Made by a program: the position numbers and the translations under genes. From an uncultured Vicinamibacterales bacterium (lineage in GTDB: Bacteria > Acidobacteriota > Vicinamibacteria > Vicinamibacterales > JAKQTR01), in assembly GCA_964396055.1 (NCBI GenBank), contig CAYNDV010000004.1, positions 9,284 to 73,283 of the forward strand: DNA of 64,000 nt. The letters run 5' to 3'. Shown here one piece after another: positions 1 to 23,550 of this stretch. Each line of letters starts with the position of its first letter. Positions within the stretch are counted from its first letter, which is position 1. Below the pieces are notes generated by a model that was not told the origin of the DNA, did not search any database, and worked only from the letters and a program-made list of their open reading frames with translations.

Positions 1-1004
1 GGCCGGCCCAGGGCGCCGGCCAGGTGCCCGGCAGACGTGTCGACCGTGATCACGAGATCGAGGCCGGCCATCAGGGCGGCCGTATCGGCAAAGTCGCGAT
101 GGCGGTCCGACAGGTCGACCAGCACCCCGCCCCAGGGGGCGGCGCGCGTTTCGTCCGGCGCCGGGCCGAACTGCAGGCTGTACCACCGGATGCCCGGTAT
201 CTGCGCCAGGGGCGCGAACCGTCCGAGCGGCATCGATCGGCGATCGTCGCGTTTGTGGCCGGGATTGCCCGCCCAGACGATGCCGACGCGCAGCGCGGCG
301 TCCTCCTCGTCCACGGCTGCGAGCGGGGCTGGCTCGGCCGTCAGGTAGGGCACGCCGGCCGGAATGGTGTCGAGGGTGGTTCCGAAGGCGAGCGGCAGGC
401 TCATGAGCGGGCACTGCCACGCGACGGGCGGGAGCGCCTCTCCCTTCATCACGACCTGGCTGACACCCGGCAGGCTCCGCATGAGCCGCACCAGCGGTTT
501 CGGCACCTCCAGGATCACCTCGCCTCCCCGTGCCGCGACCAGCGGGGCGTAGCGCGCGAACTGGATGGCGTCACCCAGCCCCTGCTCGGCGTGGAGCAGG
601 ATGCGGGTGCCCCTCAGCGGTTCACCGCGCCACAGGGGCTGGGTGAATCCCCGCGGCGCGTCGGCGAAGTCCTTCCACCGCCAGCGCCACTCGTATTCAC
701 GCCAGCCTTCCGCGAAGGCGCCCTGGCGCAGCAGTTCGACAGCGAGTCCGAACCGGGCGCCCGCGTGGGAGGGGTCCACCTCGATGGCGCGGCGGTAGGC
801 CGTGAACATCGGCTCCCATGCCCCTCGTTCAGCGTGCCTCGTCGCGAGGGCCACGTGGCCGAGCGTGACGCAGGCGCGTGCGGACGGGTGGCCCGGCGCC
901 AGGGCCAGCGCCCGTTCGAAGGCCGCGAGGCCGGCCTCGGGGTCGGCGCCGAAGAGCCGGTTGCCCTGCTGCAGGAGCGCCAGCACGTCGGGCGGCGCGG
1001 TCAT
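1..1004 (-). CDS. TPR-repeat / GT9-like (heptosyltransferase-fold) glycosyltransferase; the C-terminal end runs off the window start. Absent from the supplied ORF track.
   Basis: Own translation of the minus strand from the ATG at 1004-1002, which forms an ATGA overlap with the stop of the upstream GT4 gene. Sequence: MTAPPDVLALLQQGNRLFGADPEAGLAAFERALALAPGHPSARACVTLGHV...AYRRAIEVDPSHAGARFGLAVELLRQGAFAEGWREYEWRWRWKDFAD...LLHAEQGLGDAIQFARYAPL. TPR-like helices are followed by the EYEWRW and EQGLGDxIQFxRY signatures typical of TPR-GT9-like proteins. I checked the frame at three stretches (~1004-661 and 600-541) and found it open there, but did not translate 1-540 or 601-660. The antisense track ORF 24..1694 has an uninterrupted R/G/P-rich composition. 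Confidence 0.6.
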   Translation of the reverse strand, partial: MTAPPDVLALLQQGNRLFGADPEAGLAAFERALALAPGHPSARACVTLGHVALATRHAERGAWEPMFTAYRRAIEVDPSHAGARFGLAVELLRQGAFAEGWREYEWRWRWKDFADAPRGFTQPLWRGEPLRGTRILLHAEQGLGDAIQFARYAPLVAARGGEVILEVPKPLVRLMRSLPGVSQVVMKGEALPPVAWQCPLMSLPLAFGTTLDTIPAGVPYLTAEPAPLAAVDEEDAALRVGIVWAGNPGHKRDDRRSMPLGRFAPLAQIPGIRWYSLQFGPAPDETRAAPWGGVLVDLSDRHRDFADTAALMAGLDLVITVDTSAGHLAGALGR

Positions 1005-2197
1005 GCGGCCCCCGCCTGCGCCAGCACGAGCGCCTTCAGCGCGCGGGCGTGGTCTCCCCATGTGCGGCCGTTCGCGCGCAGCCATGCCGAGCCGCGCCCG
1101 CCGATGGCCCGGCCACGGTCCCGGTTCGCATGGACGAACTCGAGCGCCTCGACGATCTCGTCGATGTCGCTCTCGCCCCAGCCGTCGGTGCCGCCGGTGC
1201 CCGCAGGCGGGGAGACGGGCCGCTGGGTCCGCAGCGGCAGGCACCATCCGTCACCGGCGCGGTCGTCGGCCAACGCCGGGCTCAGCAGATCGCGCGTGCC
1301 CGTGTTGTCCGACACGATGACCGGGACGCCGCAGGCCATCGCTTCCTTCGCCGGCAGGTTCGTGCAGGCTTCGGCCCGCGACGGCTGCAGGCTGACGTCC
1401 ATCTCGCGCAGCACCTGGGGCATCAACTGGTTCGGGATCGGCCCGATGTCGATCACCTGCGACGGGGGAATCCCGTTGGCGACGGCCCACTGCACCGCGT
1501 CGACGCGGCCCTGGTCATCGAGCGTCACGGGGTGTGCGAGCCGGCCCGAGAATCCCGCCGAGAGCTTCGGCCACGGCGAGTGCCACGAGGTGACGAGCAC
1601 GGCGTCCGGATGGCGCGCGGCAAACGCCCGGAACGCGAGCACCACGAGATCCTGTGCCTTGCGGTACTCGATCTTGCCACCGGAGAAGACGTAGAAGCGC
1701 GAGGGATCGAGCAGGCCGGATCGGGGCCCCGGGCAGAACAGCGAGGCGTCGATGCCCTCATGAATCAGGTGAACGGGCCTTGTCGCGTGGGCGCTCACGA
1801 GGTCGCGCGCCCAGGTGGATGCGACCAGCAGCGTGTCGTACGGGCGCATGCGCGCCTCGAATCCCCGGAACCGGGTGTCCTCGAAAATCAGGCGCCCGAT
1901 GTTGGCCGAGCCCCGGAACCGGGTGGGCGCGAAGCCGTTGCCGAGGCCGTGGATCACCGGGCAGTCGAACTGCAGGACGGCGTCGGCACCGGCGGCCGCG
2001 ATACGGGCGGCGCAGGCGTTGGTCTCGGCGACCGCCGGCGCGATCGCCGCGCGGCGCAGCGGATCCATCCAGCGCAGGTCATCCTGAGCGATGGGCACGA
2101 CCATGAGCGGCGTCACGTTCGGATCCACGGCCCAGTGGCAGAAGACGTTCAAGCCGAGGATGCCCCAGCCGAAGGTGGACGCGGCCTGCCAGGTCAT
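1001..2197 (-). CDS. GT-B glycosyltransferase (GT4 / Glycos_transf_1-like)
   Basis: C-terminal 398 aa of track ORF 1001..3448, trimmed to MTWQAASTFGWGILGLNVF (ATG at 2197). Contains the EX7E-type motif region SRAEACTNLPAKEAMACGVPVIVSDNTGTRDLL. The upstream 417 aa of the track ORF is R/G/P junk. Confidence 0.8.
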   Translation of the reverse strand: MTWQAASTFGWGILGLNVFCHWAVDPNVTPLMVVPIAQDDLRWMDPLRRAAIAPAVAETNACAARIAAAGADAVLQFDCPVIHGLGNGFAPTRFRGSANIGRLIFEDTRFRGFEARMRPYDTLLVASTWARDLVSAHATRPVHLIHEGIDASLFCPGPRSGLLDPSRFYVFSGGKIEYRKAQDLVVLAFRAFAARHPDAVLVTSWHSPWPKLSAGFSGRLAHPVTLDDQGRVDAVQWAVANGIPPSQVIDIGPIPNQLMPQVLREMDVSLQPSRAEACTNLPAKEAMACGVPVIVSDNTGTRDLLSPALADDRAGDGWCLPLRTQRPVSPPAGTGGTDGWGESDIDEIVEALEFVHANRDRGRAIGGRGSAWLRANGRTWGDHARALKALVLAQAGAA

Positions 2198-2208
2198 GAC
2201 GACGGATG

Positions 2209-3144
2209 TCACGAGGCCACCCGCTCTCCGGCCCGGGCCGGGACGCGGCCCGCATCGTTCCGCAGTCGCTGCACGTCGGCCCATTCGAGGCCGACCGGGC
2301 GATCCATGCGCAGCCCGGACCCGGCCAGCGGCAGGGCGACGCCCTTGCCGATGACGTGGGTCGAGAGGTGGACGAGGCGCAGCGGATCGTACGGCGGATT
2401 GGGATCGACGAGGAGCCTTCGGGCCGGGTCCCACGCCGGCACGGCCAGGCAGACCAGCCAGTTGTAGGTGGCCGGGAACCGGCGCACGGGGAGCCGCTGG
2501 GCCTGCAGGGTGACGTTGAAGGCGGCCTGTTCCACGATCCGGCTCTCGTCGTCGATGACCGGCAGGCGATCGAGGCCGTCCTGCAGGTGTCGGCGCCAGC
2601 CGGCCCAGAGCGGCGAGTCGGTCCGGGCTGCCCAGAAGCCGCTGTTGATCACCGGGGCGCCCCGCATGAGGCGGGCCACGTCGCTGCCGAAGCAGCGGTG
2701 GTACATGCGGGCCTCCGCGTCCCAGACACGGAAGCCTTCGACGAACTTGAAGTACCCCCGATCCACCTCCGGCACGGCCGCCATGCCGGTTCCCGACGCC
2801 TCGTGGACGAGTTCCGCCACGGCCGACGCGTCCTGGAACCACGCATCCGCGTCGACCCAGACGAGGATGTCGGCGCCAGAGACGACCTCGTTCAAGTACG
2901 GGCGCGCGAGCATCGCGCCGAAGCCGGGGAACGCGGCCTCCACCTGCGCCCGGGCCGGATAGGCGTGGGGGTAGGTGAACCGTTCGAGGGTCACGCCGCG
3001 GGCGCCGAGCCAGTCGCGCTGCACCGGGTCGAGACCGAGATCCAGGACGACGGGGGCCGCCTCGACCGCCGCAAGCGAGCCAAGCAGGCCCTGCAGGCAC
3101 CCGAAGTACTTCGCGTCGGCGGCGGTGACCACCCGGTACGTCAT
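2209..3144 (-). CDS. GT-A fold nucleotide-diphospho-sugar transferase (GT8-like)
   Basis: Track ORF 2209..3297 trimmed to MTYRVVTAADAKYFGCLQGLLGSL (ATG at 3144). It has a DxD motif in ILVWVDADAWF, and the AADxKY N-terminus is typical of GT8-like enzymes. Confidence 0.6.
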   Translation of the reverse strand: MTYRVVTAADAKYFGCLQGLLGSLAAVEAAPVVLDLGLDPVQRDWLGARGVTLERFTYPHAYPARAQVEAAFPGFGAMLARPYLNEVVSGADILVWVDADAWFQDASAVAELVHEASGTGMAAVPEVDRGYFKFVEGFRVWDAEARMYHRCFGSDVARLMRGAPVINSGFWAARTDSPLWAGWRRHLQDGLDRLPVIDDESRIVEQAAFNVTLQAQRLPVRRFPATYNWLVCLAVPAWDPARRLLVDPNPPYDPLRLVHLSTHVIGKGVALPLAGSGLRMDRPVGLEWADVQRLRNDAGRVPARAGERVAS

Positions 3145-3345
3145 GGCGATGTTCGATCCCTGGCGGCATGTCCGGCCGGCTGGTGTCGGATGACCGACAC
3201 ACCCTCCGTGGACAGGCGCCCTGGCTTGACGGCCTGTGCGTGCGATTCGAAGCCGCCCGCGTCCGCGCGGGCGCGCTGCCATGGTGGGTCTGCACAAAGA
3301 GTTCCATATCCGGCGTCGCTCCCGGCGCGGCCGCGGCGGATGGCG

Positions 3346-3361
3346 TGGCGTTCACTTTGCA
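3346..3361 (+). promoter_or_regulatory. Candidate sigma54 (-24/-12) promoter upstream of maf
   Basis: TGGCGT-TCACT-TTGCA, with GG at 3347-3348 and GC at 3359-3360 (GG-N10-GC spacing and a perfect TTGCA -12 element). It lies in the 383-nt divergent intergenic region. The implied 5' UTR to the GTG at 3528 is ~155 nt. Confidence 0.4.
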
Positions 3362-3527
3362 GCGTGAACCCGCATCCGGCTGTCCGCCGCCTGCCGCCGG
3401 CGGGCCTGGCAGACGGAAGTTCTTGTTCTTGCAGCCACTTGCGCACATGTGCGCGGCTGGCGGGCCTGTATCCGGTGTGGCCGGGTGTCGGGGCGCCGGT
3501 CGGCTCGTGCGTCAACCAGGAGACGAC

Positions 3528-6113
3528 GTGATCGGTCGGAAGGACAAGCACGCGGTGGATGTCCGTCTCGATCCCGGTCCCGGCGGGCCGACGTTGTCGA
3601 TCCGGACACCGGACGGCCGGTGGCTCCAGTACCACAGCCGCCGCGACCCCGTTGCCGAGGCCGACCGCCTGGTCGCACCTGCGTTCGCGTCCGGGACACC
3701 CCCGGTGGTGGTGCTGGTGGGCTCCGGGCTGGGCTACCTGATCGACGCCGTGGAGCGCCGATCGCCAGACACCAGGATCATCACGCTCGAGCCCTGGCCT
3801 GTCACGATTCCGATGCTGCATCAGCGGCGGGACTGGACCGCCGCGATCGACGGCGGGCGCCTGCTGATCCTCGAGGGGCCCGAGTATGGCGGCCGCGTGG
3901 CGGCCGCCACGCGGCTGGGAGACCACGATGCCCCGGTGATCGTTCACCCGATCGTCGAGCGCGAGTTCGCCGGCGAAGCGGCCCGCGCCCGCGCCGTGGT
4001 GTCGCAGTTGATCGATGGCGCCAGGGCCAACGCGGAAGCCAGGCGGGCCTTCGCCGGACGATACCTCCGCAACGTGCTCATCAACACCCCCGTCATCGTC
4101 AGGGAGGCCGACGCGGGGTGCCTGGCCGGTCTCGCGCACGGCCTGCCGGCCGTGGTGGTGGCCGCAGGTCCGTCGCTCGACGACAACCTGCCGGCGCTGC
4201 AGCGCTACCACGGACGGGCGCTGATCATCGCCGTCGACACGGCCCTGCGCCCGCTCGTGGCGGCCGGCATCCGGCCCCACCTCGTTGTCGGCGTCGACCC
4301 GAGCGAGATCAATGCCCGGCATCTCACCGATCTGCCCGACGTCTCCGACGTGCACCTCGTTGCCGAAGGCAGCCTCAATCCGCGGGTGTTCCCCGCGTTT
4401 GCCGGCCGCACGTTTACCTTCAAGGTGAGCCATCACCACCCCTGGCCATGGCTGGCGGCGTACGGGGCCGGCCGCGCGACGCTGAAGGCCTGGGGGTCTG
4501 TGCTCACCACGGCGTTCGACGTCGCCTGCCTGACCGGTGCCGATCCCATCGTGTTTGCCGGCGCCGACCTCGCGTACACGAAGGGGCTGTTGTACTGCCG
4601 GAACACCGCCTACGAGCCAGAGTGGGCGCACCTTGACACCGACGACGCCCGCGCGCGCGAGTTCGCGCCACTGATGACGGGCCCCGGCCGGTTCGTCACC
4701 ACCGACGTGACCGGCGGCCACGTGACCACGGCCGGGCACTTCGTGCAGTTCCGCGACTGGATCGCGGCGCGCGCGGCCGAGGTGCCGGGCCGGCGGGTGG
4801 TGAACGGCACGGGGGCGGGCATCCTCGAAGGTCGAGCCATCGACCAGGCGGATCTGGCGGAGGTGCCGCTGGCCGATGGTGTGGACGCAGGCGCCGTCCT
4901 CCGCGATCGCGTGGCTGCCCGATGGGCGGCGTCGGTCACGGAGTCGCCCGCCGACGGTCTGCGTCTGGCCGGGGCCGCAGACGACGTCGCGCACGGCGCA
5001 TCGCCACTGGATCAGTGGGTGGCGTTCGCGGCCGAGCCGTCGTCCGCCGCCTGGATTCGCCCGTGCCTCGAGCATGCGGCGCGTACGCTTGAGGGGCGGC
5101 CGCATCGGCGCGAACGGCTGCGGCGCTGGGCCGATCTCCGCGCCGAATCCCGGGTCCTGGTCGCCGGCGGCGGTGGCCCGGCGCGCGACCTCCGCCGCAG
5201 GCTTGCCGGCGCGCGGCGCGATGTGGTGATGCTCGGCTTTCTCGCCGATGGCGGGCCCGGCTCCCTCGACGGGTTCCCCGTCCTCCCCGGGTCACGCACG
5301 CTCGAATCGGACTACGACACCGTGCTCGCGCCGGAGTCGGCACCTCCGGACGACAACGGTCCATGCATGCCGCCGCCGGACGTTCCGGTCACGGTGTGCG
5401 ACCCGGCCCTCTGGCGCCGCCGCATCGGCGAGTACTCGCGGCTCGAGACCGTCGTCGGCGATCTGTTCGGCGAACGCCCCGTGCTCATCGCCGGTCCGGG
5501 TGCGGCGCTGACCGACGAGGTGAGCCGGCGTTATGCGGTGGTGGCCGTCAGCGAGGTCGGTCGCGGCGTGCCCCGCGCCGACGTCGTGGTGCTGCTCAAC
5601 CTGCAGAAACTGCTCTCGCTGGTCTTCGATGCGGAGGGCCTCGGGCGCTGGGGTCGCGTGCTCGTGCCGGATGGCCTCATGAAGCGGTTTCCCGATCCGC
5701 ATCCGGCCGGCCGGCCCTTCGGTCCGGACGCCTGCGCCGGTCTGGTCCCGGAATACCGGGACGCCTGGGGCTGGGACCGGCTGGTGCCATTCGAGCAGGT
5801 GGATCGCCTGGTGGACTTCGGCTGGATCGCCGAGCGGCTGGTGTGCGGCCGTCTCGAGAACGTGTACGCCGATCCGTCCGCGCACCCCGAATGGACCCGC
5901 CACGATCCGGGGTTGCAGGCGTTCGATCCGGCCGCCATGAGTCCCGGCCTGGTCAAGTCGGCCTGCAATCCCACCCACCTCGGGATCTGCCTGGCGTACC
6001 ACGCGGGCATCCGGCACGTCCACACGGCCGCCGTCGACGAGACCAGGGTCGACGCCGTACTGGCGCGCCTGGGGATGACCCGCACACGCCTGGATGAAGA
6101 CCACCCGGCCTGA
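3528..6113 (+). CDS. maf: Maf-type motility accessory factor glycosyltransferase (DUF115 / MptE-like) with a ~280-aa C-terminal extension
   Basis: Track ORF 3168..6113 trimmed to the GTG at 3528 (AGGAGA Shine-Dalgarno 5 nt upstream). The core is typical of flagellin-modifying Maf proteins: LPAVVVAAGPSLDDNLPALQRYHGRALIIAVDTALRPLVAAGIRPHLVVGVDP...IVFAGADLAYT. The C-terminal part carries a Rossmann-like RVLVAGGGGPARDLRRRLAGARRDVVMLGFLADGG module plus an unassigned domain. Confidence 0.75.
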   Translation: MIGRKDKHAVDVRLDPGPGGPTLSIRTPDGRWLQYHSRRDPVAEADRLVAPAFASGTPPVVVLVGSGLGYLIDAVERRSPDTRIITLEPWPVTIPMLHQRRDWTAAIDGGRLLILEGPEYGGRVAAATRLGDHDAPVIVHPIVEREFAGEAARARAVVSQLIDGARANAEARRAFAGRYLRNVLINTPVIVREADAGCLAGLAHGLPAVVVAAGPSLDDNLPALQRYHGRALIIAVDTALRPLVAAGIRPHLVVGVDPSEINARHLTDLPDVSDVHLVAEGSLNPRVFPAFAGRTFTFKVSHHHPWPWLAAYGAGRATLKAWGSVLTTAFDVACLTGADPIVFAGADLAYTKGLLYCRNTAYEPEWAHLDTDDARAREFAPLMTGPGRFVTTDVTGGHVTTAGHFVQFRDWIAARAAEVPGRRVVNGTGAGILEGRAIDQADLAEVPLADGVDAGAVLRDRVAARWAASVTESPADGLRLAGAADDVAHGASPLDQWVAFAAEPSSAAWIRPCLEHAARTLEGRPHRRERLRRWADLRAESRVLVAGGGGPARDLRRRLAGARRDVVMLGFLADGGPGSLDGFPVLPGSRTLESDYDTVLAPESAPPDDNGPCMPPPDVPVTVCDPALWRRRIGEYSRLETVVGDLFGERPVLIAGPGAALTDEVSRRYAVVAVSEVGRGVPRADVVVLLNLQKLLSLVFDAEGLGRWGRVLVPDGLMKRFPDPHPAGRPFGPDACAGLVPEYRDAWGWDRLVPFEQVDRLVDFGWIAERLVCGRLENVYADPSAHPEWTRHDPGLQAFDPAAMSPGLVKSACNPTHLGICLAYHAGIRHVHTAAVDETRVDAVLARLGMTRTRLDEDHPA

Positions 6114-6137
6114 ACGTTCCCCGGCCTGCGGGGCGCT

Positions 6138-9671: not shown

Positions 9672-9755
9672 GAGACTCTCCTCCTGCCGCCATCCTGGCG
9701 GCGATCGTTCCTCCGTCAGGCCGGCTCAGCGCCCGGCGTGACGGCGCTCTTCACT

Positions 9756-11573: not shown

Positions 11574-13504
11574 GGCGTGAACACGACCGGGTAATGCCGT
11601 TCCACTTCCTCGAAATATCCAACCAGATCCGACAGGGGCGCGAACCGGCGCGTCGGCGCCACGTCATCCACCCTGAAGACCTCAAAGGGACCCAGCGCGC
11701 GCACGCGCGGCACGATGGCGTCGAACGCGCACGAAAAGACGACGACTGCGGTGTCGGCGGCGTCGCAGATCCGCAGCGCCTCCGGATCCGACACGGGGTA
11801 GCCCGCCACGGTCGATCCCCACCGCGCGGCGTCGCCGTCGACGAGCAGGTCCAGCCGCCGCCCGATGGTCCGGTGCGCGGCGTGGAAGAGCGATCCCGTG
11901 CCCCATCCGGCCACCCGGTCGAACCGGTCCAGCGGGCGCGCCCCGGCGGCGGCCCGTGCGTTGGCGCGGATCCAGGACTGCACCTCGCAGTTGGGCCAGT
12001 TGTAGACCGTGTCGGACAGGAAGAAGAGCACCGCCGCGATGTCGGCGCGATCCGTCATCGGGAGGGCCGCCACGCGCTGCTCGACGGCCCGCCAGAAGTC
12101 GGCGAGGCCGGCGCAGCCCGCCGTGTCGGCCTCGTCGAGGCGGTGGGCCGAGCCGAGCCCGGGGATGGCGTTGAACCGCGTGCGGACCCGCGCGTAGTAC
12201 GCCTCGCGTGAGGCGCCCAGGACGGGCTTGAAGCGCGCCGGTTCGCGACGCGCGGCCTCGGCCTGCTCCGGGCGTACGTGCAGGCGGCCGTGGGCCACGG
12301 CCCCCGTCGGCAGCAGGTCGTGCCGGCGCGTCAGCGCCATGGGGTGCGGCGTGGCCGACTCGACCGTCAGCGTCCGGCTCACCCGGTGCGGGATCCCCCG
12401 CCGCTGGCATTCGAGGCCGAACGAGACGTCTTCCCACTCACAGTGGAACAAGGACTCGTCCTGGCCCACCATCGTCCACACGGTGCGGGTCGAAACGTAG
12501 AGGCCGCCGCAGCAGAAGGCCGTCTCCGCGAAGTCGTCGAGGGGCGAGTAGAGGATGCGTTCCCCGGCGTACACGCCGCTCGCCAGCGCCTCACGCAGCC
12601 CCCGCCGCTGGTGCAGCACCTGGTACTCGGCGTACCGCTGCGGGAACCGCCGGTCGAGATCGGCATAGAAGACCTGGGGAAAGGTGCACACCCCGATCGC
12701 GCGGCCGATACCGCGCAGCGCCGCCGCCCAGCCTGGCGTCACGACGTACCGGTCGTGCAGCAGGCACAGGCGCTCGTGGCGGGCCGCCGCGGCGATGAGG
12801 TTCTTCTTGCGGGTGATCCAGCCGCGGGGCTCGGGCTGCTCGAGGTCGATCTGCCGCACGCGCGGATCGTCCGGCACGCCATCCGGCCGCGGGCCGCAGA
12901 AGATCACTTCGACGTCCGGCAGATCGAGGGCGAGCAGGGCGCCGGCCATCTGCGCCGCCCGGTGGGACGGTCCCGCCGTCAGGATGCCGAAGGTCCAGCC
13001 GTCCGCGGCGGCCGCGGCGGCCACGGGCGCCGGCCCGGTCTTGCGGAACACCTGGTGCCGGTACGGCCCCTGTACCGCATCCTCGACCTGGCGCAGGCAG
13101 GACCGGAAATACTCGCGCTGCGGGAAGTCGTCATCACAGAGCGGCGTGCCGCGGGTCCATTCCGCCCGGTCGAGGTCGATCCAGATGCCGCCCGGCGCCA
13201 GGGCGTGCAGCACCTCCCAGAAGAGGAGCGGCGCGAAGCGCGACGAGCGCAGTCCCGTGGTGACCACGGCCGGCTGGCACTCGACGCCGAGGACCGGATC
13301 GAGCCTGAAGCCGCCGTCCACGCCGGCCTCCACGTCCAGCCGTGGCGCGCCGATGCCCGCGGTGGCCGGCGCCGGGCCGTAGCCGCAGTGCACCCAGCCG
13401 GTCCGGTCCAGCACGTGGCGATGCTCCGCCAACGCGCGGGCCAGCCACCGCGCCGGGGGCGCGAACGGCTGTCGGGCGAAGCGGAGCGCCTCGTGCAGGG
13501 CCAT
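11570..13504 (-). CDS. Multidomain protein: N-terminal methyltransferase-like remnant, central GT-A (GT2-like) domain and C-terminal Rossmann-like module
   Basis: 644 aa. FWEVLHALAPGGIWIDLD resembles a SAM-MTase tail. WTFGILTAGPSHRAAQMAGALLALDLPDVEVIFCG...GWITRKKNLIAAAARHERLCLLHDRYVVTPGW resembles a GT-A fold. VAGWGTGSLFHAAHRTIGRRLDLLVDGDAARWGSTVAGYPV is the C-terminal module. Domain calls are by eye only. Confidence 0.55.
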   Translation of the reverse strand: MALHEALRFARQPFAPPARWLARALAEHRHVLDRTGWVHCGYGPAPATAGIGAPRLDVEAGVDGGFRLDPVLGVECQPAVVTTGLRSSRFAPLLFWEVLHALAPGGIWIDLDRAEWTRGTPLCDDDFPQREYFRSCLRQVEDAVQGPYRHQVFRKTGPAPVAAAAAADGWTFGILTAGPSHRAAQMAGALLALDLPDVEVIFCGPRPDGVPDDPRVRQIDLEQPEPRGWITRKKNLIAAAARHERLCLLHDRYVVTPGWAAALRGIGRAIGVCTFPQVFYADLDRRFPQRYAEYQVLHQRRGLREALASGVYAGERILYSPLDDFAETAFCCGGLYVSTRTVWTMVGQDESLFHCEWEDVSFGLECQRRGIPHRVSRTLTVESATPHPMALTRRHDLLPTGAVAHGRLHVRPEQAEAARREPARFKPVLGASREAYYARVRTRFNAIPGLGSAHRLDEADTAGCAGLADFWRAVEQRVAALPMTDRADIAAVLFFLSDTVYNWPNCEVQSWIRANARAAAGARPLDRFDRVAGWGTGSLFHAAHRTIGRRLDLLVDGDAARWGSTVAGYPVSDPEALRICDAADTAVVVFSCAFDAIVPRVRALGPFEVFRVDDVAPTRRFAPLSDLVGYFEEVERHYPVVFTP

Positions 13505-13507
13505 GAG

Positions 13508-14155
13508 TCAGCAGGCCTCCCGGGTGCGCAGGTCGAGTTGATCGAGTTCCACCAGGTCGCTCACCCGCACGAGGGCCGCTCCGGCGGGGACGACGCGCCG
13601 GAGCGCCGCGAGCACCTCATCGTCGGATCGCACGGCGCGGTGGTGGAGCGCGGTCACGACGTTGGTCGATTCGAAGAGGACGAGCGACCCGCGAACGGCC
13701 TCCGGGATGAGCCCGTCGAGCCCGGTGTCGACCGGCACGTACGTGCCGGCATCGCGCCACCCCGAACCTGCGGGGCAGCGGATGGGCCACGGCTCATCGG
13801 CGGGCCCGCGCTGTACGCCGTACACGCCCAGGCCCGCTGCCCACGCGCCCGCCACCAGCGACGCGTCGGGCAGCGTGTCGGCGAGCAGGTAGAGCGGCAA
13901 CTGGTGCCGGTTCACGGCCGGGTCGCAGAGCACGTCCAGGACCTGGCCGAGCACGGGAGTGCCCGGGCCGATGCGGACCAGGCTCGGCACGCCGCGACGG
14001 TACGCCCGCCGCAGGGCGCCGAGGGTGTCGGGGCCGTCGAACTTGTCCCACAAGCCGCGCCAGGCGACGGCCGGGAGCGCCAGGGCATCTGGCCGGCACG
14101 CGTCCCGCGGCGTGGAACCCCGGTGGAGAGCCGTTGCAAACAACACCGCGCCCAT
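13508..14155 (-). CDS. Hypothetical protein (215 aa), translationally coupled within the glycosylation operon
   Basis: Track ORF 13508..14761 trimmed to MGAVLFATALHRGSTPRD. The ATG at 14155 forms an ATGA overlap with the WavE stop, and there is a 3-nt gap to the next gene. No family recognised. Confidence 0.5.
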   Translation of the reverse strand: MGAVLFATALHRGSTPRDACRPDALALPAVAWRGLWDKFDGPDTLGALRRAYRRGVPSLVRIGPGTPVLGQVLDVLCDPAVNRHQLPLYLLADTLPDASLVAGAWAAGLGVYGVQRGPADEPWPIRCPAGSGWRDAGTYVPVDTGLDGLIPEAVRGSLVLFESTNVVTALHHRAVRSDDEVLAALRRVVPAGAALVRVSDLVELDQLDLRTREAC

Positions 14156-15450
14156 CAGTGGATCCTCCCCGTAAGGGTCCGCAGCGACGTGCGGTCCGGG
14201 TCGCAGTCGTCGTCCACGCCCGGCAGGGGACCGGCCTCGAGCTGGTCCCAGAAGGCGGGTGTGACGAGTTGGCGGGGGCCGGTGCGGAGGCTCAGGTCGG
14301 GAATCGCCAGGTTCTTCAGCCAGATCAGGTCGAACCAGTCGTGGCCGACCACGGCGAAGTGATCGCGGTAGAACGCCCAACTGTCGGCCAGCGTGCCGTC
14401 GACGGGCCGGCCGATGGTCCGGTTGAACTGCAGACCGAAGTACGACTCGGCCGGATGGCCGTCGAGACAGACGTCGGTGAGGGGACGATCGGCGCGGTCG
14501 GGAGACAGCAGCGCCCCTTCGCGCTCGTCGAGGGCGGCCGACCAGTACTGCTCCAGGTCGCCGGCGTGGCCCAGCATCACCAGGTCGGACGGGTGGTAGA
14601 GCAGGAAGCGGCGCGTATAGGCGCTGGGGACGATCAGGCGATCCTGGAGCCCCCGGCAGCGGGCCGCCCTCGCGTCGAAGCGTGCCAGATGCCGGCGGGC
14701 GCGATCGAACACCCCGGGGTCCAGCACGGCGAGATCGGTGCGTGTCTTGAGCACCAGGCAAGCGCCGCGTTCGACGGCCCTGCGGATGCCGGCGCGCGTG
14801 GACACGATCTGCCGGTTGCGGTTCTGGATGCCGTCGCGATCCGGCGGCGTACTGAGCACCACCTCGTCCACCGCCGGTCGCACCGCGTCGAGCAACCCGG
14901 GATCCGTGCCGGCCCAGGTGGACAGCACGATCGTGTCGTGCGGGTGCAGGGCCGACAGCGCCCGCAGGACGCGGGGCGTCTCATCGGCGAAAACCGGGCC
15001 CTGGACGACGATCGCGTCGGTTGACGAGGGCGCGCGGGTGGCCGATCGGGCGGCCAGGGCATCGAGGCCGGCCAGTTGCGCCCGCACGGACGCGTCGGCG
15101 AACACGGCGCTGGCGGGCAGGGCCGGCGCGCCGCACAGCGCGGCCACCTGGTCCCGGATCTCCGGCCAGGCCGACGAATAGACGACCACGACCGTCGTAC
15201 CCCGCGGCTCGGCGGCGAGCCGCTCCGGCGGCGCGATCTCGATGCCGCGGCAGCGCCGGCCCCAGCGCGACCGGTCGTTGTCGACCACATAGTCGAGCCG
15301 GACGGGATACAGGCTGTGGAAGTAGTCGAACACGCTCCCCGTTCCCCAGCCCACGAGGGTCGTGGACCGCGCCGACACCAGCCGCGAGACGGCGTCGAGC
15401 GCCTCACGATCGATGCGTCCGGAACCCGGGGCAGGCGACGCGTGCATCAC
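14155..15450 (-). CDS. WavE-family polysaccharide biosynthesis protein with an N-terminal Rossmann-like module
   Basis: IVVQGPVFADETPRVLRALSALHPHDTIVLSTWAGTD...IQNRNRQIVSTRAGIRRAVERGACLVLKTRTDL resembles the WavE lipopolysaccharide-synthesis family. The N-terminus is LVGWGTGSVFDYFHSLYPVRLDYVVDNDRSRWGRRCRGIEI. The start could be GTG 15450 or ATG 15447. Confidence 0.65.
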   Translation of the reverse strand: MMHASPAPGSGRIDREALDAVSRLVSARSTTLVGWGTGSVFDYFHSLYPVRLDYVVDNDRSRWGRRCRGIEIAPPERLAAEPRGTTVVVVYSSAWPEIRDQVAALCGAPALPASAVFADASVRAQLAGLDALAARSATRAPSSTDAIVVQGPVFADETPRVLRALSALHPHDTIVLSTWAGTDPGLLDAVRPAVDEVVLSTPPDRDGIQNRNRQIVSTRAGIRRAVERGACLVLKTRTDLAVLDPGVFDRARRHLARFDARAARCRGLQDRLIVPSAYTRRFLLYHPSDLVMLGHAGDLEQYWSAALDEREGALLSPDRADRPLTDVCLDGHPAESYFGLQFNRTIGRPVDGTLADSWAFYRDHFAVVGHDWFDLIWLKNLAIPDLSLRTGPRQLVTPAFWDQLEAGPLPGVDDDCDPDRTSLRTLTGRIH

Positions 15451-15453
15451 GCC

Positions 15454-16203
15454 TCAGGCCACCGCCCGCAGCGACACGGGGTTGGAGAGGAACAACTGGA
15501 GATCGGACGGGATCCCGAGGCCGTGCATGCCGGCGCCCTCGCGGCCCACGTTGAAGACGGCGATGCGTGCGCCCTCACCGATCAGTTCGTTGTACACGGG
15601 CGCCACGTAGAACTCGTTGTTCACCCGCAGGTTCTTCGCAATCATCCGATCGGCGGCCCGCACGAAGTCGGCGCCGCGGCGGAAGTTGTAGATGCCCACC
15701 GTGGCTTCGCGCGAGATGACCTGCTTCTCGACCACGCGCGTGACACGACCCTCGCCATCGAACCCGACAAACGACCACTTGGGATCGTCAGCCGCCATCG
15801 TCATGATCAGGCCGTCGGCCTGCTGCCGGTCCATGGTGGCCAGGTAGTCGTCGATGTCGAGGTCGACCCACTGATCGCTGTTGGCCAGCATCAGGGCGTC
15901 GCCGTTGTCGATGAGCGTCCGCGCGAGCAGGACGGTGCAGGCCGCGCCCTCCGTCACGCCGTCGACGGGCACCACGGCGCATCCGGGCGCCACGCGCTCG
16001 AGGGTGCGCTGCATGCCGAAACGCTCGAGGTGTTCGCGCAGGGCGACGAAGACGAAACGGTGGGCCTGGCGGGGCCGCACGTTCTGGACGACCACCTCGA
16101 TCATGGGGCGGCCGTGCACGGGAATCAGGGGCTTGGGCAGATCGTAGCCCGCGGTGGCGAAGCGGCTTCCGCGGCCGGCGATGGGCAGGACGATGTTCAG
16201 CAT
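15454..16203 (-). CDS. Sugar-phosphate nucleotidyltransferase (GT-A/NTP_transferase fold), paralogue 1
   Basis: MLNIVLPIAGRGSRFATAGYDLPKPLIPVHGRPMIE carries the G-x-G-x-R nucleotide-binding signature. The C-terminal region FYVAPVYNELI is shared with the adjacent paralogue. Confidence 0.75.
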   Translation of the reverse strand: MLNIVLPIAGRGSRFATAGYDLPKPLIPVHGRPMIEVVVQNVRPRQAHRFVFVALREHLERFGMQRTLERVAPGCAVVPVDGVTEGAACTVLLARTLIDNGDALMLANSDQWVDLDIDDYLATMDRQQADGLIMTMAADDPKWSFVGFDGEGRVTRVVEKQVISREATVGIYNFRRGADFVRAADRMIAKNLRVNNEFYVAPVYNELIGEGARIAVFNVGREGAGMHGLGIPSDLQLFLSNPVSLRAVA

Positions 16204-16212
16204 GGTGACCGT

Positions 16213-16947
16213 TCAGACGGCGGCCGGCAGCGCCGACGCCTCGAATCGCTGCACTTCTTCCGGCGTGCCGAGGCCGTGCATCTGGCCCGCGGAGATCGGG
16301 AAGTGGCCGACGCGGCGGCCGGCGAGAATCAGTTCGTTGTAGACCGGCGCCACGTAGAACTCGCCGGACACGGAGGCGTTCTTCAGCAGCATCCGTTCGG
16401 CGCCGCGCACGAAGTCGCTGCCGCGGCGGAAGTAGTAGAGACCCGCCGTGGCGTTGCGGCTGATGGGCTGCTTCTCCGCCACCGCCACTACCTGGCCGTC
16501 TTCTTCGCGGACGTACGACCAGCGCGGATGGGTGTTCGGGAACGTCATGACGTAGCCGTCCCACTGGCCCACGCGGGCCGCCGCCAGGAACTCGTCCACC
16601 GGGACGTCGATGTACTGGTCCGCGTTGGCGATCAGCAGTTCGTCGTCCTGCGGCAGGTACTCCATCCCGAGCAGGACGCTGCACAAGGCGCCGGCCGTCG
16701 GCTGGCCCATCGTCACCAGCCGGCAGTCGGGGGCGATCAGACGGAGCACGTCGCCCAGGGCGAAGCCCTGCACGTGCTCCTGCCGGCACACGAAGACGAA
16801 CTGGTGGGGTTCGCGCGGCGTGAGGTTGCGGACCACGATTTCGACGAGGGGTTGGCCCGCGACTTCCACGAGGGGCTTGGGGAACGTGTAGCCGCGTTCG
16901 GCGAACTGGCGGCCTTCGCCGCCCATGGGCACGACAATGTGAATCAT
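16213..16947 (-). CDS. Sugar-phosphate nucleotidyltransferase, paralogue 2 (tandem duplicate)
   Basis: Track ORF 16213..17628 trimmed to MIHIVVPMGGEGRQFAERGYTFPKPLVEVAGQPLVE (ATG at 16947, ATGA overlap with the HAD gene stop). It is collinear with paralogue 1 along its whole length (FYVAPVYNELI, MHGLGTPE). Confidence 0.75.
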   Translation of the reverse strand: MIHIVVPMGGEGRQFAERGYTFPKPLVEVAGQPLVEIVVRNLTPREPHQFVFVCRQEHVQGFALGDVLRLIAPDCRLVTMGQPTAGALCSVLLGMEYLPQDDELLIANADQYIDVPVDEFLAAARVGQWDGYVMTFPNTHPRWSYVREEDGQVVAVAEKQPISRNATAGLYYFRRGSDFVRGAERMLLKNASVSGEFYVAPVYNELILAGRRVGHFPISAGQMHGLGTPEEVQRFEASALPAAV

Positions 16948-17603
16948 GCCGCCACCTTGATCCCTTCCACCGGCGCCGCCAGGCGGGCCCGTTCGATGGC
17001 GGCCCGCAGGCGGAAGTAATGCACGTCGCCGAATCCCGGCACCTGGCAGACATGGGCGCCCGACCGGCGGGCCGCTTCCACGCCGTGAGGCGCGTCCTCC
17101 ACGATGAGCGTCTCGGCGGGCGTGACGCCCATGCGCGCCATGGCCGCCAGGTAGATCTCCGGGTCCGGCTTCGGCCGGCTCACGTCTTCGTTGCTGGTGA
17201 GGAACTCGAAGTACTCGTCGAGGCCCGACTGGTGAATCATCAACTGCACGCTGTCGCGCACCGCGTTGGAGCACACCGCCATGCGGTAGCCCTCCTGGCG
17301 CAGGCGGCTCAGCATGTACTCCTTCTCGAAGACGGGCCGGCACTGCCGCAGGACTTCTTCGCGGGTGTAGACCTGCTTGAGTCGGTTCACCATGCCGTGA
17401 ATCGCCGAGGGCAGGCCCTTCTCGACCGTCAGCATCTCCAGCTTCTTGCGGGTTGGGAGGCCGTTGTAGGTGGACAGGTGCTCGTAGCGGGTGATCTCGA
17501 AGCCGAACAGCCGGAGCGCCCGGTTGAGCGCGTCGTAGTGCCACTCGGTGGCGTCCACGAGCACGCCGTCGAGGTCGAACAGCACACAGCTGATGTGATT
17601 CAC
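16944..17603 (-). CDS. HAD-superfamily phosphatase (beta-phosphoglucomutase-like subfamily)
   Basis: VLFDLDGVLVDA is HAD motif I (DxDG), AVCSN is motif II, and KPDPEIY...VEDAPHGVEAA covers motifs III/IV. GTG start at 17603 with a GAGGAG SD 7 nt upstream. Confidence 0.8.
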   Translation of the reverse strand: MNHISCVLFDLDGVLVDATEWHYDALNRALRLFGFEITRYEHLSTYNGLPTRKKLEMLTVEKGLPSAIHGMVNRLKQVYTREEVLRQCRPVFEKEYMLSRLRQEGYRMAVCSNAVRDSVQLMIHQSGLDEYFEFLTSNEDVSRPKPDPEIYLAAMARMGVTPAETLIVEDAPHGVEAARRSGAHVCQVPGFGDVHYFRLRAAIERARLAAPVEGIKVAA

Positions 17604-17614
17604 GATGGTGCTCC

Positions 17615-17953
17615 TCAGGCGGTGACACCCGGGCCGGCCGGGTACTTGTCTCCGATCACGCTCGGCATCTTGACGACGACCGTGGCCGCCTCGGTCAGTG
17701 CCTCGAAGTCGGTTGGTTCGCCCGGCGCGAGCAGGACGATGTCGCCCGCGGTCAGGGTCTCGCCGTTCATCCGGACCGTGCCGGCGGCAATCAGGGTCAG
17801 TTCGGTCGCCACCCGGTGGACGTGGGCGGCCTCGGCCGCGCCAGCCGCATACCGCTTGTACGCGACCTCACAGGCCGACGTCCGGATGCACGACGGCTCG
17901 AAATCGCCGACCATCCAGCCGCCAACCATGTCGGTCAACCGACACCGTGTCAT
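17615..17953 (-). CDS. Cupin-domain protein, first gene of the long minus-strand glycosylation operon
   Basis: Track ORF 17615..17989 trimmed to MTRCRLTDMVGGW (ATG at 17953, GAGGAG SD). The cupin-like core is AHVHRVATELTLIAAGTVRMNGETLTAGDIVLLAPG. Confidence 0.6.
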   Translation of the reverse strand: MTRCRLTDMVGGWMVGDFEPSCIRTSACEVAYKRYAAGAAEAAHVHRVATELTLIAAGTVRMNGETLTAGDIVLLAPGEPTDFEALTEAATVVVKMPSVIGDKYPAGPGVTA

Positions 17954-18034: not shown

Positions 18035-18050
18035 TGCAAATCCGGATCCA
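18035..18050 (-). promoter_or_regulatory. Candidate sigma54 (-24/-12) promoter for the cupin...sulfotransferase operon
   Basis: The minus strand reads TGGATC-CGGAT-TTGCA, with exact GG-N10-GC spacing and a perfect TTGCA. It is ~70-80 nt upstream of the cupin ATG and immediately downstream, in the minus-strand sense, of the AT-rich palindrome pair. Confidence 0.45.
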
Positions 18051-18054
18051 GCCG

Positions 18055-18118
18055 CATAAACCAATCCCGGATTGATTGATGCGCCCCGGTGAATAAATCA
18101 ATCCGGGATTGATTTGCC
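18055..18118. repeat. Pair of AT-rich ~29-bp palindromic units (locus A); the same unit as at 41044-41110
   Basis: A1 is GCATAAACCAATCCCGGATTGATTGATGC. A2 is ATAAATCAATCC-G-GGATTGATTT, a perfect 10+1+10 dyad centred at 18105. The consensus is GCATAAATCAAYCC(S)GGRTTGATTTATGC. A2 overlaps the last codons and stop (KSIPD*) of the GDPD gene. Confidence 0.85.
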
Positions 18119-21408: not shown

Positions 21409-21417
21409 CGCGGCCGG

Positions 21418-23547: not shown

Positions 23548-23550
23548 GTG

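Follow-up and report, generated by a model that had tools for sequence, protein, structure and literature searches.

The 64 kb window (the whole stretch of DNA analysed), which derives from an uncultured, Vicinamibacteria-like, soil-type bacterium of the Acidobacteriota, contains a glycosylation locus, and our analysis supports a genuine Maf protein at its centre. On balance, and with moderate confidence, we favour a cytoplasmic protein-glycosylation locus with flagellin as the likeliest target, in which Maf would prime the protein with a CMP-ulosonic acid and a neighbouring cassette would extend or decorate the glycan. This ten-gene cassette (g5-g14) is a portable accessory sugar module, conserved in 12 additional loci belonging to Acidobacteriota, Thermoanaerobaculia, Desulfobacterota, Gammaproteobacteria and Burkholderiales.

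GC3 frame analysis reproduced the three transcription units described in the initial annotation, with their coordinates (minus strand, <1-3144; plus strand, 3528-6113; minus strand, 6138-17953) and junction sizes. Within the long minus-strand unit an 84 nt gap separates g6 from g5, and the remaining genes either overlap by 1-7 nt or are spaced 3-11 nt apart. The genes of this unit stand as described but its extent probably does not: the operon seems to begin one gene further to the right, at a GDPD-like gene (g14, 18098-18784) that had been overlooked and with which the conserved cassette opens. The features of the locus are as follows.

1-1004, minus strand: g1, TPR + GT9-like (GT-B) glycosyltransferase of FlmG-like architecture, truncated by the window start (full protein 421 aa)
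1001-2197, minus strand: g2, GT4 glycosyltransferase, 398 aa (Glycos_transf_1, E = 3e-10)
2209-3144, minus strand: g3, 311-aa protein with a GT-A-like DAD motif; gene call with exact product confirmed
3291-3306, minus strand: candidate sigma54 promoter TGGAACTCTTTGTGCA, 147 nt upstream of g3
3346-3361, plus strand: candidate sigma54 promoter TGGCGTTCACTTTGCA, 167 nt upstream of maf
3528-6113, plus strand: g4, Maf-type (MAF_flag10/DUF115) glycosyltransferase, 861 aa (PF01973, E = 6e-32)
6138-9671, minus strand: g5, fusion of GT4 (~1-430), pseudo-radical-SAM + Rossmann-like + Cys-rich region (~430-930) and sulfotransferase (~938-1177)
9756-11573, minus strand: g6, radical SAM enzyme with CNLRCHFC, a C-terminal Rossmann-like domain and a CxxCx5C tail (PF04055, E = 2e-18)
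11570-13504, minus strand: g7, conserved 644-aa protein with a GT2-like middle part (EWEDxxFG motif; Glyco_tranf_2_3, E = 0.08)
13508-14155, minus strand: g8, conserved 215-aa protein with an RGLWD motif
14155-15450, minus strand: g9, WavE-family protein with an N-terminal Rossmann-like domain (PF07507, 55.8 bits)
15454-16203, minus strand: g10, sugar-1-phosphate nucleotidyltransferase with a canonical AGRGSRF loop
16213-16950, minus strand: g11, nucleotidyltransferase paralogous to g10 with a variant GGEGRQF loop
16944-17603, minus strand: g12, HAD-IA phosphatase or mutase of the beta-phosphoglucomutase family (HAD_2/beta-PGM-like)
17615-17953, minus strand: g13, small cupin with the motif HVHRVATELTLIAAG (E = 4e-4, under the cut-off)
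18035-18050, minus strand: candidate sigma54 promoter TGGATCCGGATTTGCA, 82 nt upstream of g13
18098-18784, minus strand: g14, GDPD-like phosphodiesterase with HR...E.D...HD residues (27.3 bits against a cut-off of 23.6)
18796-18811, minus strand: candidate sigma54 promoter CGGCCCGTCTCTTGCA, 12 nt upstream of the g14 GTG start

Profile searches confirmed most of the earlier assignments (Maf, TPR/GT9-like, GT4, active radical SAM, WavE, both nucleotidyltransferases and HAD). The Maf family profile matches PDB entry 5MU5, the M. magneticum Maf, at 1.3e-13, and the AF2 model of g4 matches it at 3.5e-18 (Foldseek), making it the best structural match; the invariant D257 aligns with the catalytic E324 of 5MU5. 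As in the Maf islands of Campylobacter, Helicobacter, Aeromonas, Magnetospirillum, Geobacillus and Clostridium, the MAF_flag10/DUF115 core and catalytic acid are conserved, sugar-activation and tailoring genes cluster with Maf, and flagellar genes are found in the neighbourhood. The present locus differs from these islands in having neither Pse/Leg/Neu nor flagellin genes adjacent, in its ten-gene radical-SAM/GT4/WavE cassette, pseudo-radical-SAM domain and sulfotransferase, and in an additional, poorly modelled C-terminal region of ~320 aa in Maf. Literature searches found no report of such a cassette, pseudo-radical-SAM domain or sulfotransferase in a flagellin glycosylation island.

FlmG proteins are defined by an N-terminal TPR and a C-terminal GT-B part (10.1101/2022.03.25.485807), and g1 is likened to those of Caulobacter and Brevundimonas by this two-part architecture. 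Its full-length form (from L001) scores just over the Pfam cut-offs for TPR_14 (25.1 bits) and Glyco_transf_9 (24 bits), but it is short (421 aa), its GT9 match is marginal and it coexists with Maf. Homologues of g1 with 33-37% identity occur near radical SAM genes in three alphaproteobacterial loci (L027, L063 and L067). The former description of g3 as GT8-like was not borne out, since HMM searches gave no family match and the protein shows the DAD motif only.

The cassette contains a paralogous pair of dead and active radical SAM proteins. The intact motif predicts that g6 is an active radical SAM enzyme; six of its cysteines are invariant (C57, C61, C64, C531, C534 and C540), and it falls outside every curated family, with all NCBIfam scores far under the cut-off. 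Structure comparison places BlsE, DesII and viperin, which are nucleotide- or sugar-modifying enzymes, among the best matches to its core. The shared features are a partial TIM barrel and CX3CX2C, but only ~240 of the 605 residues of g6 align (TMq ~0.3), and the Rossmann-like domain and the Cys-rich tail are particular to g6. The corresponding part of g5 is 31% identical to g6 (E = 5e-32) and lacks both CxxxCxxC and GGEPT, so that the proposed fusion of a glycosyltransferase (here GT4), a dead radical SAM domain and a sulfotransferase is upheld. Sulfotransfer_1 is matched by 31 of the 46 family members, and the family profile matches 48 PDB sulfotransferases (best 2.4e-9), which firmly predicts a PAPS-type enzyme. 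Among the loci compared, the sulfotransferase was found only in the window and in one 90%-identical relative; it is lineage-specific. The radical-SAM and sulfotransferase content on which a sulfated or C-modified glycan had been proposed is thus real, but its sulfotransferase part is confined to this lineage.

Other members of the cassette are less clearly assigned. The cupin call for g13 is backed by an HxH(x)4E(x)6G motif and by its retention at 45-76% identity in 12 loci, but not by an HMM score above the cut-off; likewise, the reading of g7 as a multidomain GT-A protein has a GT2-like motif behind it but an HMM match of only E = 0.08. The C-terminal 108 aa of g7 form a Rossmann-like domain common to g9, and the N-terminus of g8 weakly resembles the GDPD-like g14 (hhalign E = 1.5e-4, probability 52%). 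For WavE, g7 and g8 no relative of known function or solved structure was found, so that the roles given to them are guesses. We also note that a GT4 is invariably adjacent within the cassette.

Pfam scans of the GC3-called genes found no NeuB, CMP-NulO synthetase, PseB or PseC in the 64 kb, nor were any found in the 10 kb to the left; tblastn of the window with these four proteins from related loci returned nothing, and the 74 kb of genome inspected contain no NulO or Kdo-activation gene. The initial annotation had correctly reported this absence and had concluded that Maf installs a different sugar. Such an island would be self-sufficient, the cassette making a non-nonulosonic donor for Maf (or g1) to transfer directly onto flagellin in an organism without a Pse/Leg/Neu pathway. 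The closest Acidobacteriota loci (L003, L089 and L086) likewise have no NeuB, PseB, PseC or CMP-synthetase genes within 10 kb, and the island encodes seven putative transferases together with a complete set of activation enzymes (HAD and two nucleotidyltransferases). We nevertheless consider this unlikely: the nucleotidyltransferases belong to the sugar-1-phosphate class (PF00483/PF12804) rather than to CTP_transf_3, the 74 kb are a small part of the genome, and every Maf donor characterised so far is a CMP-ulosonic acid (10.1101/2022.03.25.485807; 10.1101/2020.06.03.131540), CMP-Kdo being also usable (10.1101/2020.06.03.131540). Furthermore, in two of the 12 loci the cassette is embedded in, or adjoins, a NulO operon that encodes NeuB and CMP synthetase. 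One (L088) is a single co-directional run of TPR-GT4, PseB, PseC, CMP-NulO synthetase, NeuB, GT4 and radical SAM through to WavE and Maf; in the other (L087) NeuB, CMP synthetase, DegT and a Cj1295-like gene flank the cassette. Because of these operons and a PseB-like gene near the cassette in L006, the cassette looks like an accessory to ulosonic-acid glycosylation. Its coexistence with NulO operons makes it an accessory module rather than evidence for a non-NulO sugar installed by Maf, and the earlier conclusion is not supported.

The neighbourhoods of the cassette are mixed. Maf adjoins it in five of the 12 loci, in varied orientations (L003, L006, L086, L088 and L089), whereas Wzm (ABC2_membrane) and Wzt (ABC_tran + Wzt_C) genes adjoin it in two Thermoanaerobaculia loci (L020 and L021) and one from Burkholderiales (L025), and two further cassettes (L004 and L007) have housekeeping flanks with no Maf or flagellar genes within 10 kb. 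The cassette is thus not restricted to flagellar settings. Islands mainly in non-flagellated genomes, next to LPS/EPS export genes, had been named in advance as the mark of a surface-polysaccharide locus, which the exporter genes beside the cassette in these three loci bear out in part. The locus might then build a surface polysaccharide or lipopolysaccharide component, its flagellar proximity being coincidental; the WavE name derives from an LPS core cluster, and g1 matches heptosyltransferase family GT9. This too seems doubtful to us, since Maf adjoins the cassette both here and in the five loci above, and since the positions of the sigma54 motifs and the synteny with flagellar genes in L091, L006 and L067 (below) speak for a flagellar role. 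Unlike ABC-transporter-dependent O-antigen or capsule clusters, moreover, the window and the 10 kb to its left yielded no exporter, no polymerase, no ligase and no priming transferase. In the window, Pfam scans of the GC3-called genes detected neither Wzx, Wzy, Wzm or Wzt nor a priming phosphoglycosyltransferase, which favours a putative cytoplasmic route. In the Wzm/Wzt loci the cassette is reminiscent of Pse/Leg, which are used for flagellin and LPS alike.

The flagellar link, as read from sequence, would rest on candidate sigma54 promoters and on synteny. The candidate promoters proposed ahead of maf and the long operon were recovered as motifs: six of the ten GG-N10-GC matches fall within the non-coding 6.6% of the window, 29-167 nt upstream of g3, maf, g13, g14, the sigma54 activator or flgB. 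Sigma54-like motifs are non-random in placement only, their total not exceeding chance (16 observed versus 20.9 expected). They are partly conserved in relatives; in L089, TGGCATTTCTTTTGCA occupies the position matching TGGATCCGGATTTGCA. Another Acidobacteriota MAG (L091) has Maf 1.2 kb from a CheX/RR/HK/sigma54-activator/flgBC-fliEFGH block like that of the window, MotA lies near the cassette in L006, and in Oleispirillum naphthae (L067) relatives of g1, g2 and the radical SAM gene lie within ~6 kb of a flagellin gene with FlaF/FlbT, the g2 homologue (40% identical) being ~3.6 kb away. Transcription of the island is probably sigma54-dependent, alongside flagellar class II genes. The island had been described as welded to the flagellar regulon; the synteny is recurrent, but the two are not contiguous. 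Between the island and flgB lie ~8 kb of unrelated genes (19152-26708), including BNR, VWA, pgl, zwf, ppk2 and GGDEF-EAL, and a chemotaxis/two-component block (26920-30785). No flagellin gene adjoins the island. One lies ~60 kb away: fliD and fliS are at the right end of the window and the flagellin C-terminus (...VLSLLR) is just outside it, so a flagellin substrate exists.

In Acidobacteriota, many Maf homologues carry fused FG-GAP/VCBS repeats, which hints at non-flagellin substrates. Maf and the cassette might accordingly serve a broader system that glycosylates other proteins, for example secreted ones of the FG-GAP/TIG/CARDB kind; two FG-GAP_2/TIG/CARDB proteins are encoded just left of the window, and an FG-GAP protease adjoins the cassette in L087. 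We judge this improbable, as the FG-GAP proteins beside the window sit on either side of a TMEM260-like GT-C enzyme of their own, which suggests a separate periplasmic system, and the L091 Maf, itself a Maf-FG-GAP fusion, is embedded in a flagellar locus.

In our view, the data partly support the original interpretation and are best accommodated by Maf-primed flagellin glycosylation in two layers. The first would comprise the lineage-specific transferases: the true Maf, the FlmG-like TPR + GT-B protein g1, the GT4 g2, and g3. Maf would prime flagellin Ser/Thr with a CMP-activated ulosonic acid, either CMP-Kdo or a NulO whose synthesis is encoded elsewhere in the genome. The second layer would be the conserved cassette, g14 to g5, extending or decorating this glycan. 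Its beta-PGM-like HAD, cupin and two nucleotidyltransferases may yield one or two nucleotide-activated sugars or, given the glycerophospho substrate suggested by the GDPD-like enzyme, a sugar and a phospho-alcohol. A HAD-family enzyme and a nucleotidyltransferase also lie beside the flagellin glycosyltransferase in the type A system of Clostridioides difficile (CD0240-0244) and the b-type system of P. aeruginosa (PA1088-1091), which we take to be phospho-linked flagellin modifications; likened by description only, the arrangement suggests a nucleotide-activated non-sugar or phospho-linked substituent. To our knowledge, those systems have no radical SAM, WavE, GDPD-like or cupin genes and no Maf. 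The radical SAM enzyme would remodel a nucleotide sugar, the adjacent GT4, the GT2-like g7 and WavE would transfer the products, from which we infer an oligosaccharide, and the fused sulfotransferase would add sulfate in this lineage only. The locus brings to light a portable, uncharacterised ten-gene radical-SAM sugar cassette, spread over several phyla, whose product is probably a sugar not yet described.

Genes were called from third-position GC periodicity (the window has 71% G+C), and the called genes were then scanned against Pfam. The calls reproduced the layout of the initial annotation, with g1-g3 on the minus strand, maf on the plus strand and g5-g13 on the minus strand. The junctions within the g5-g13 run were also as described: apart from a single gap of 84 nt, neighbouring genes overlap by 1-7 nt or are 3-11 nt apart.

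Genes of the island (window coordinates, strand, assignment)
g1, <1-1004, minus, TPR plus marginal GT9 match
g2, 1001-2197, minus, GT4
g3, 2209-3144, minus, no family match
maf (g4), 3528-6113, plus, PF01973
g5, 6138-9671, minus, fusion protein
g6, 9756-11573, minus, radical SAM
g7, 11570-13504, minus, no family match
g8, 13508-14155, minus, no family match
g9, 14155-15450, minus, WavE
g10, 15454-16203, minus, nucleotidyltransferase
g11, 16213-16950, minus, nucleotidyltransferase
g12, 16944-17603, minus, β-phosphoglucomutase-family HAD
g13, 17615-17953, minus, small cupin by motif
g14, 18098-18784, GTG start, GDPD-like, right of g13

Beyond g14 the gene order is a secreted BNR/sialidase-like protein, a VWA protein of an Acidobacteria-specific type, pgl, zwf, ppk2, GGDEF-EAL and CheX, followed by two-component genes and a σ54 activator and then, from ~30.9 kb, by a complete flagellar cluster (flgBC, fliE-R, flhBAFG, fliA, fliMN, flgF-L, fliW and csrA). 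At the right edge (63477-64000) the minus strand carries fliS (63477-63878) and the 3' end of fliD. On a sister contig (L092, 1-1711), the sequence for a flagellin C-terminus (...ANNSSSSVLSLLR*) stops ~310 nt upstream of fliD; the organism therefore possesses flagellin, the gene for which lies ~2 kb past position 64000 and ~60 kb from maf. The earlier description of the island as welded to the flagellar regulon is too strong, as ~12 kb separate it from flgB. The island was also considered as a horizontally acquired compositional island, which is not indicated: GC content is 0.67-0.74 across the window and the island is not an outlier.

Several features of the surroundings are recorded here in their own right. 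The sialidase-like protein (BNR_2, with a signal peptide; 19152-20288, plus) is divergent from the cassette, as we term the radical SAM sugar gene set g5-g14; the nonulosonic acid (NulO) operon of L087, a gammaproteobacterial locus, also contains a BNR_2 gene, which is not a close homologue. Directly 3' of fliW-csrA lies a 321-aa GNAT acetyltransferase (61864-62829, plus) with weak similarity to the WecD/RffC amino-sugar acetyltransferases (E ~1e-6), which may have a role in sugar N-acetylation. Three heptanucleotide tandem arrays, (GTGGGGC)x7, (AGAAGCA)x7.6 and (CTTCTTG)x5.7, occupy 62791-62976; the second and third arrays are each other's reverse complement and make up a long hairpin, with the GNAT and fliT-like genes converging on it from either side. 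To the left of the window, a second sister contig (L001) carries the remainder of g1, two FG-GAP/TIG/CARDB proteins around a TMEM260-like GT-C enzyme, and a PPK2. The GT-C protein is a 696-aa TMEM260_N-like protein between 824- and 836-aa FG-GAP_2/TIG/CARDB proteins (L001 6544-13794). Eukaryotic TMEM260 O-mannosylates IPT/TIG domains, and by analogy the bacterial protein could be a counterpart that modifies its FG-GAP_2/TIG/CARDB neighbours.

The assignment of g4 as a Maf protein is secure at several levels. It matches PF01973 (MAF_flag10/DUF115) with E = 5.7e-32 (111 bits, the cut-off being 34.6), a profile built from 27 homologues matches the solved Magnetospirillum Maf (PDB entry 5MU5) with E = 1.3e-13, and a Foldseek search of the PDB with the AlphaFold (AF2) model returns the same entry with E = 3.5e-18 across 648 columns, followed by a second hit at 4e-4. 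The catalytic Glu324 of 5MU5, the importance of which has been described (10.1101/2020.06.03.131540), aligns with Asp257 of g4, which is invariant in the 27 homologues. The nearest named homologue is from Vicinamibacterales. In the window maf is not adjacent to flagellin or CMP-nonulosonate biosynthesis genes; in two relatives, the locus L088 (Desulfobacterota or 'Deltaproteobacteria') and the Acidobacteriota MAG locus L091, Maf does adjoin flagellin and/or CMP-nonulosonate genes. We also note that many Acidobacteriota Maf homologues (P0140-P0225) carry additional fused parts (FG-GAP/VCBS repeats, methyltransferases or TPRs), and that the FG-GAP Maf fusion of L091 (10001-12727) sits within a flagellar locus. 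A Vicinamibacterales Maf in L090 (1986-13725) shares its cluster with a rSAM-SPASM protein, a 790-aa B12-rSAM protein and URO-D-like, corrinoid-binding and carbamoyltransferase proteins, a gene content which is a hint that glycans of this phylum may be heavily methylated or carbamoylated.

The initial annotation reported no visible pathway for pseudaminic, legionaminic or neuraminic acid and took this to mean that the installed sugar is probably a different one. The first part stands. Pfam found no NeuB, CTP_transf_3, Polysacc_synt_2 or DegT match in the called genes of the 64-kb window, tblastn with NeuB, CMP synthetase, PseB and PseC from L087 and L088 gave no match in the window at E < 1e-4, and neither NulO genes nor flagellin were found in the 10 kb to the left of the window (L001). 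The second part is undercut by L087 and L088, where a NulO operon is present and the cassette is found within it or next to it, not in its place. The described classes of flagellin glycosyltransferase are Maf and FlmG, both of which are thought to use CMP-activated Pse or Leg (10.1101/2022.03.25.485807), and Neu5Ac and Kdo can also be transferred by Maf (10.1101/2020.06.03.131540). Given this donor range, the Maf donor in this genome could be a NulO made elsewhere or CMP-Kdo.

For comparison, 80 genomic loci with relatives of the radical SAM protein g6 and several metagenomic loci were compared by tblastn. The genes g5 (its GT4 part), g6, g7, g8, g9, g10, g11, g12, g13 and g14 recur together in 12 other loci; g1-g3 lie outside this conserved set. 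The closest relatives are from Acidobacteriota, with 61-71% identity, which, with the Vicinamibacterales Maf homologue, indicates the placement of the window's host.

Loci carrying the cassette
Acidobacteriota: L003, L004, L006, L007, L086 and probably L089 (from an unclassified metagenome contig whose gene order agrees)
Thermoanaerobaculia: L020, L021
Desulfobacterota and 'Deltaproteobacteria': L010, L012, L088
Gammaproteobacteria: L087
Burkholderiales MAG: L025

Most of these loci begin with the GDPD-like gene, so that the right boundary drawn earlier was one gene short and should include g14. A GT4 gene is always found beside the radical SAM gene. In the proteobacterial and Thermoanaerobaculia loci it stands alone, and in Acidobacteriota it is fused to a pseudo-radical SAM domain. 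Maf adjoins the cassette in five of the 12 loci with varying orientation: the two converge in the window and diverge in L089, a variation that speaks for a functional link. In L088 a single co-directional run comprises TPR-GT4, PseB, PseC, CMP-NulO synthetase, NeuB, GT4 and rSAM-methyltransferase, and further on HAD, NTP, cupin, NTP, WavE and Maf. Around the cassette of L087 lie genes for DegT, a Cj1295-like protein, a formyltransferase, NeuB, CMP synthetase and an ATP-grasp enzyme, and in L006 Maf has MotA, a PseB-like dehydratase and an ATP-grasp enzyme as neighbours. Genes for a Wzm/Wzt-type ABC exporter of polysaccharides adjoin the cassette in L020, L021 and L025, and in L004 and L007 the flanks are housekeeping genes. 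Judged from these four kinds of neighbourhood (Maf, NulO operons, flagellar genes and polysaccharide exporters), the cassette behaves like the NulO pathways, as a sugar module that serves protein glycans or polysaccharides depending on the lineage.

The g6 protein has the CX3CX2C motif in the form CNLRCHFC (Cys57, Cys61 and Cys64, all invariant) and belongs to a radical SAM family of more than 700 relatives. Its core matches PF04055 with E = 2.4e-18, and the AF2 core agrees. The fold search found BlsE, DesII and viperin among others, with ~240 of the 605 residues aligning; it matches the generic core only, so that a reaction cannot be assigned from it. Short relatives of g6 (400-430 aa) in L043, L047, L048, L050 (Sorangium), L040, L051, L055 (Campylobacterota), L058, L082, L084 and others adjoin a highly conserved NAD-dependent epimerase/dehydratase (53-80% identical to L087 8894-9859), often with DegT aminotransferases present. 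Sorangium, which is not known to be flagellated, is one of the carriers. This looks like a separate, widespread sugar module of two or three genes.

The architecture described earlier for g5, an N-terminal GT4 domain, a pseudo-radical SAM domain and a C-terminal sulfotransferase, was upheld. Residues ~430-700 share 31% identity with the g6 core (E = 5e-32), with the CX3CX2C motif replaced by GEPGGAGW and GGEPT replaced by GVQVI. The same loss of CX3CX2C is seen in all Acidobacteriota homologues of this middle domain, which by its sequence is a predicted radical SAM pseudoenzyme. The C-terminal 230 residues fall below the Pfam cut-off (E = 2.5e-4). A search of 1.8 billion representatives returned 154 relatives of this domain; 31 of 46 aligned relatives match Sulfotransfer_1, the family profile matches 48 sulfotransferases in the PDB (best 2.4e-9), and Arg23, Thr27, His93, Arg111 and Ser119, at the positions of the 5'-PSB PAPS loop, the 3'-PB and the catalytic histidine, are invariant in the family. 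Taken together, these results make the sulfotransferase call sound. Among the loci compared, the sulfotransferase was seen only in the window and one 90%-identical relative; it was ruled out as part of the conserved cassette, being absent from the cassette loci examined.

The remaining island proteins are assigned with varying confidence; the island as a whole encodes up to seven putative transferases. The full-length g1, completed from the sister contig, matches TPR_14 (25.1 bits) and Glyco_transf_9 (24 bits), both barely over the cut-offs and the latter spanning 32 residues only; FlmG-type flagellin glycosyltransferases have N-terminal TPRs and a C-terminal GT-B domain, an architecture that g1 may share. 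The label 'GT8-like' for g3 is not supported, as neither Pfam nor NCBIfam gave a match even at E <= 5. Pfam assigns no family to g7 or g8; in g7 an EWEDxxFG region is GT2-like at E = 0.08, below family assignment. The WavE match of g9 is clear (PF07507, 55.8 bits against a cut-off of 27); we know of no established biochemistry for this family. The nucleotidyltransferases g10 and g11 represent two distinct subfamilies, with AGRGSRF and GGEGRQF loops, respectively; the closest protein of known structure is 4EVW, which is itself uncharacterised. The g13 cupin falls below the Pfam cut-off and is assigned by motif. The match of g14 to PF03009 (27.3 bits against a cut-off of 23.6) covers the N-terminal 40 residues only, and the catalytic residues of the HR...E.D...HD pattern (His7, Arg8, Glu36, Asp38, His51 and Asp52) are invariant in 12 homologues. 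Sequence and profile searches gave no significant PDB match for WavE, g7, the cupin g13 or the GDPD-like g14, no solved or characterised relatives were found for g9, g7 or g8, and NCBIfam gave no equivalog-level match for any island protein.

Two Rossmann-like modules are shared between island proteins. A 108-aa domain is common to the N-terminus of g9 and the C-terminus of g7 (14155-15450 / 11570-12100; hhalign E = 2.5e-23), and a second module of ~100 aa relates residues 700-810 of g5 to the middle of g6 (39% identical; 7242-7574 / 10173-10448). These may be shared nucleotide-sugar-binding or docking domains. We also observed that the conserved motif (A/V)x(R)GLWD(K/R)F of g8 (13508-14155, minus) can be weakly aligned to LAHRGN of g14, the catalytic histidine being mostly lost. 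The idea that g8 is a degenerate GDPD paralogue of g14 is weakly supported (hhalign probability 52%) and is kept as a hint that the cassette may contain, in these two, another pair of active and dead paralogues.

Ten candidate σ54 motifs (GG-N10-GC, with two or fewer mismatches to TGGCAC-N5-TTGCA) occur in the window, six of them in the 6.6% of the DNA that is non-coding. All six precede a gene on their own strand by 29-167 nt, the genes being g3, maf, g13, g14, the σ54 activator and flgB. The flgB candidate recurs in L091 and the g13 candidate in L089. The total of looser σ54-like matches is not above chance, so that the candidate promoters are suggestive only. Two good σ54-like motifs are located within coding sequence, TGGCACAACCCGTGCT (47279-47294, plus) near the 3' end of flhA and TGGCACAGTTGGTGCA (53589-53604, plus) near that of flgF. 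The distance to the next gene is 132 nt for the first (flhF) and 121 nt for the second (flgG), and this placement suggests internal promoters in the flagellar cluster.

Synteny and a cultured relative also support a link to the flagellum. In L091, Maf is 1.2 kb from a CheX/RR/HK/σ54-activator/RR/flgBC-fliEFGH block like that of the window. In Oleispirillum naphthae (L067, cultured), a flagellin gene with FlaF and FlbT lies amid genes for two TPR-GT41 proteins, a g1-like TPR protein, a g2-like GT4 (40% identity), a short radical SAM relative (48%), a GT61 and a sugar dehydratase. No flagellar genes were found within 10 kb of the 80 radical SAM loci, a result which carries little weight because the window's own flagellar genes also fall outside that radius. 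The called genes of the window and the left flank include no match to Wzx/Wzy, Wzm/Wzt, a priming phosphoglycosyltransferase or a ligase. The candidate promoters, the synteny, the cultured relative and the lack of an exporter, polymerase, ligase or priming transferase in the window make cytoplasmic glycosylation of flagellin the best-supported role of the locus, and we regard this role as moderately probable. The observations of the initial annotation are thus confirmed with small corrections, and its interpretation is partly supported.

A possible route can be outlined. The HAD, cupin and nucleotidyltransferase proteins would make one or two activated precursors, and g6 would remodel a nucleotide sugar; GT4, g7 and WavE would attach the products to the Maf-primed glycan to give an oligosaccharide, which in this lineage would be sulfated by the fused sulfotransferase. 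In its fullest form, which we consider rather unlikely, the proposal is that the cassette makes an undescribed nucleotide-activated sugar (for example C-branched, chain-extended or radically remodelled) that at least five phyla put on Maf-primed flagellin or into ABC-exported polysaccharides, and that the glycan here is also sulfated. To our knowledge no sulfated bacterial flagellin glycan has been reported so far, and this one, if the proposal is true, would be the first. Maf and the concept of the flagellin-glycosylation island are already known. In the literature we found no described counterpart for the conserved radical SAM/GT4/WavE cassette or its wide distribution, for its dual use with Maf/NulO operons and Wzm/Wzt loci, or for the fusion of a pseudo-radical SAM domain and a sulfotransferase, and no characterised counterpart of WavE or radical SAM proteins in flagellin glycosylation.

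Flagellin glycans influence motility, filament assembly and immune or phage recognition, and their chemistry is known from few pathogens, mostly as pseudaminic and legionaminic acids. The locus indicates that soil Acidobacteriota pair Maf with a rich tailoring set of active and dead radical SAM proteins, WavE, paired nucleotidyltransferases and a sulfotransferase. The cassette gives a functional context to the orphan WavE family and to the large radical SAM family, and its core, common to NulO operons and O-antigen-type loci of other phyla, is a concrete gene set for finding a new bacterial sugar.
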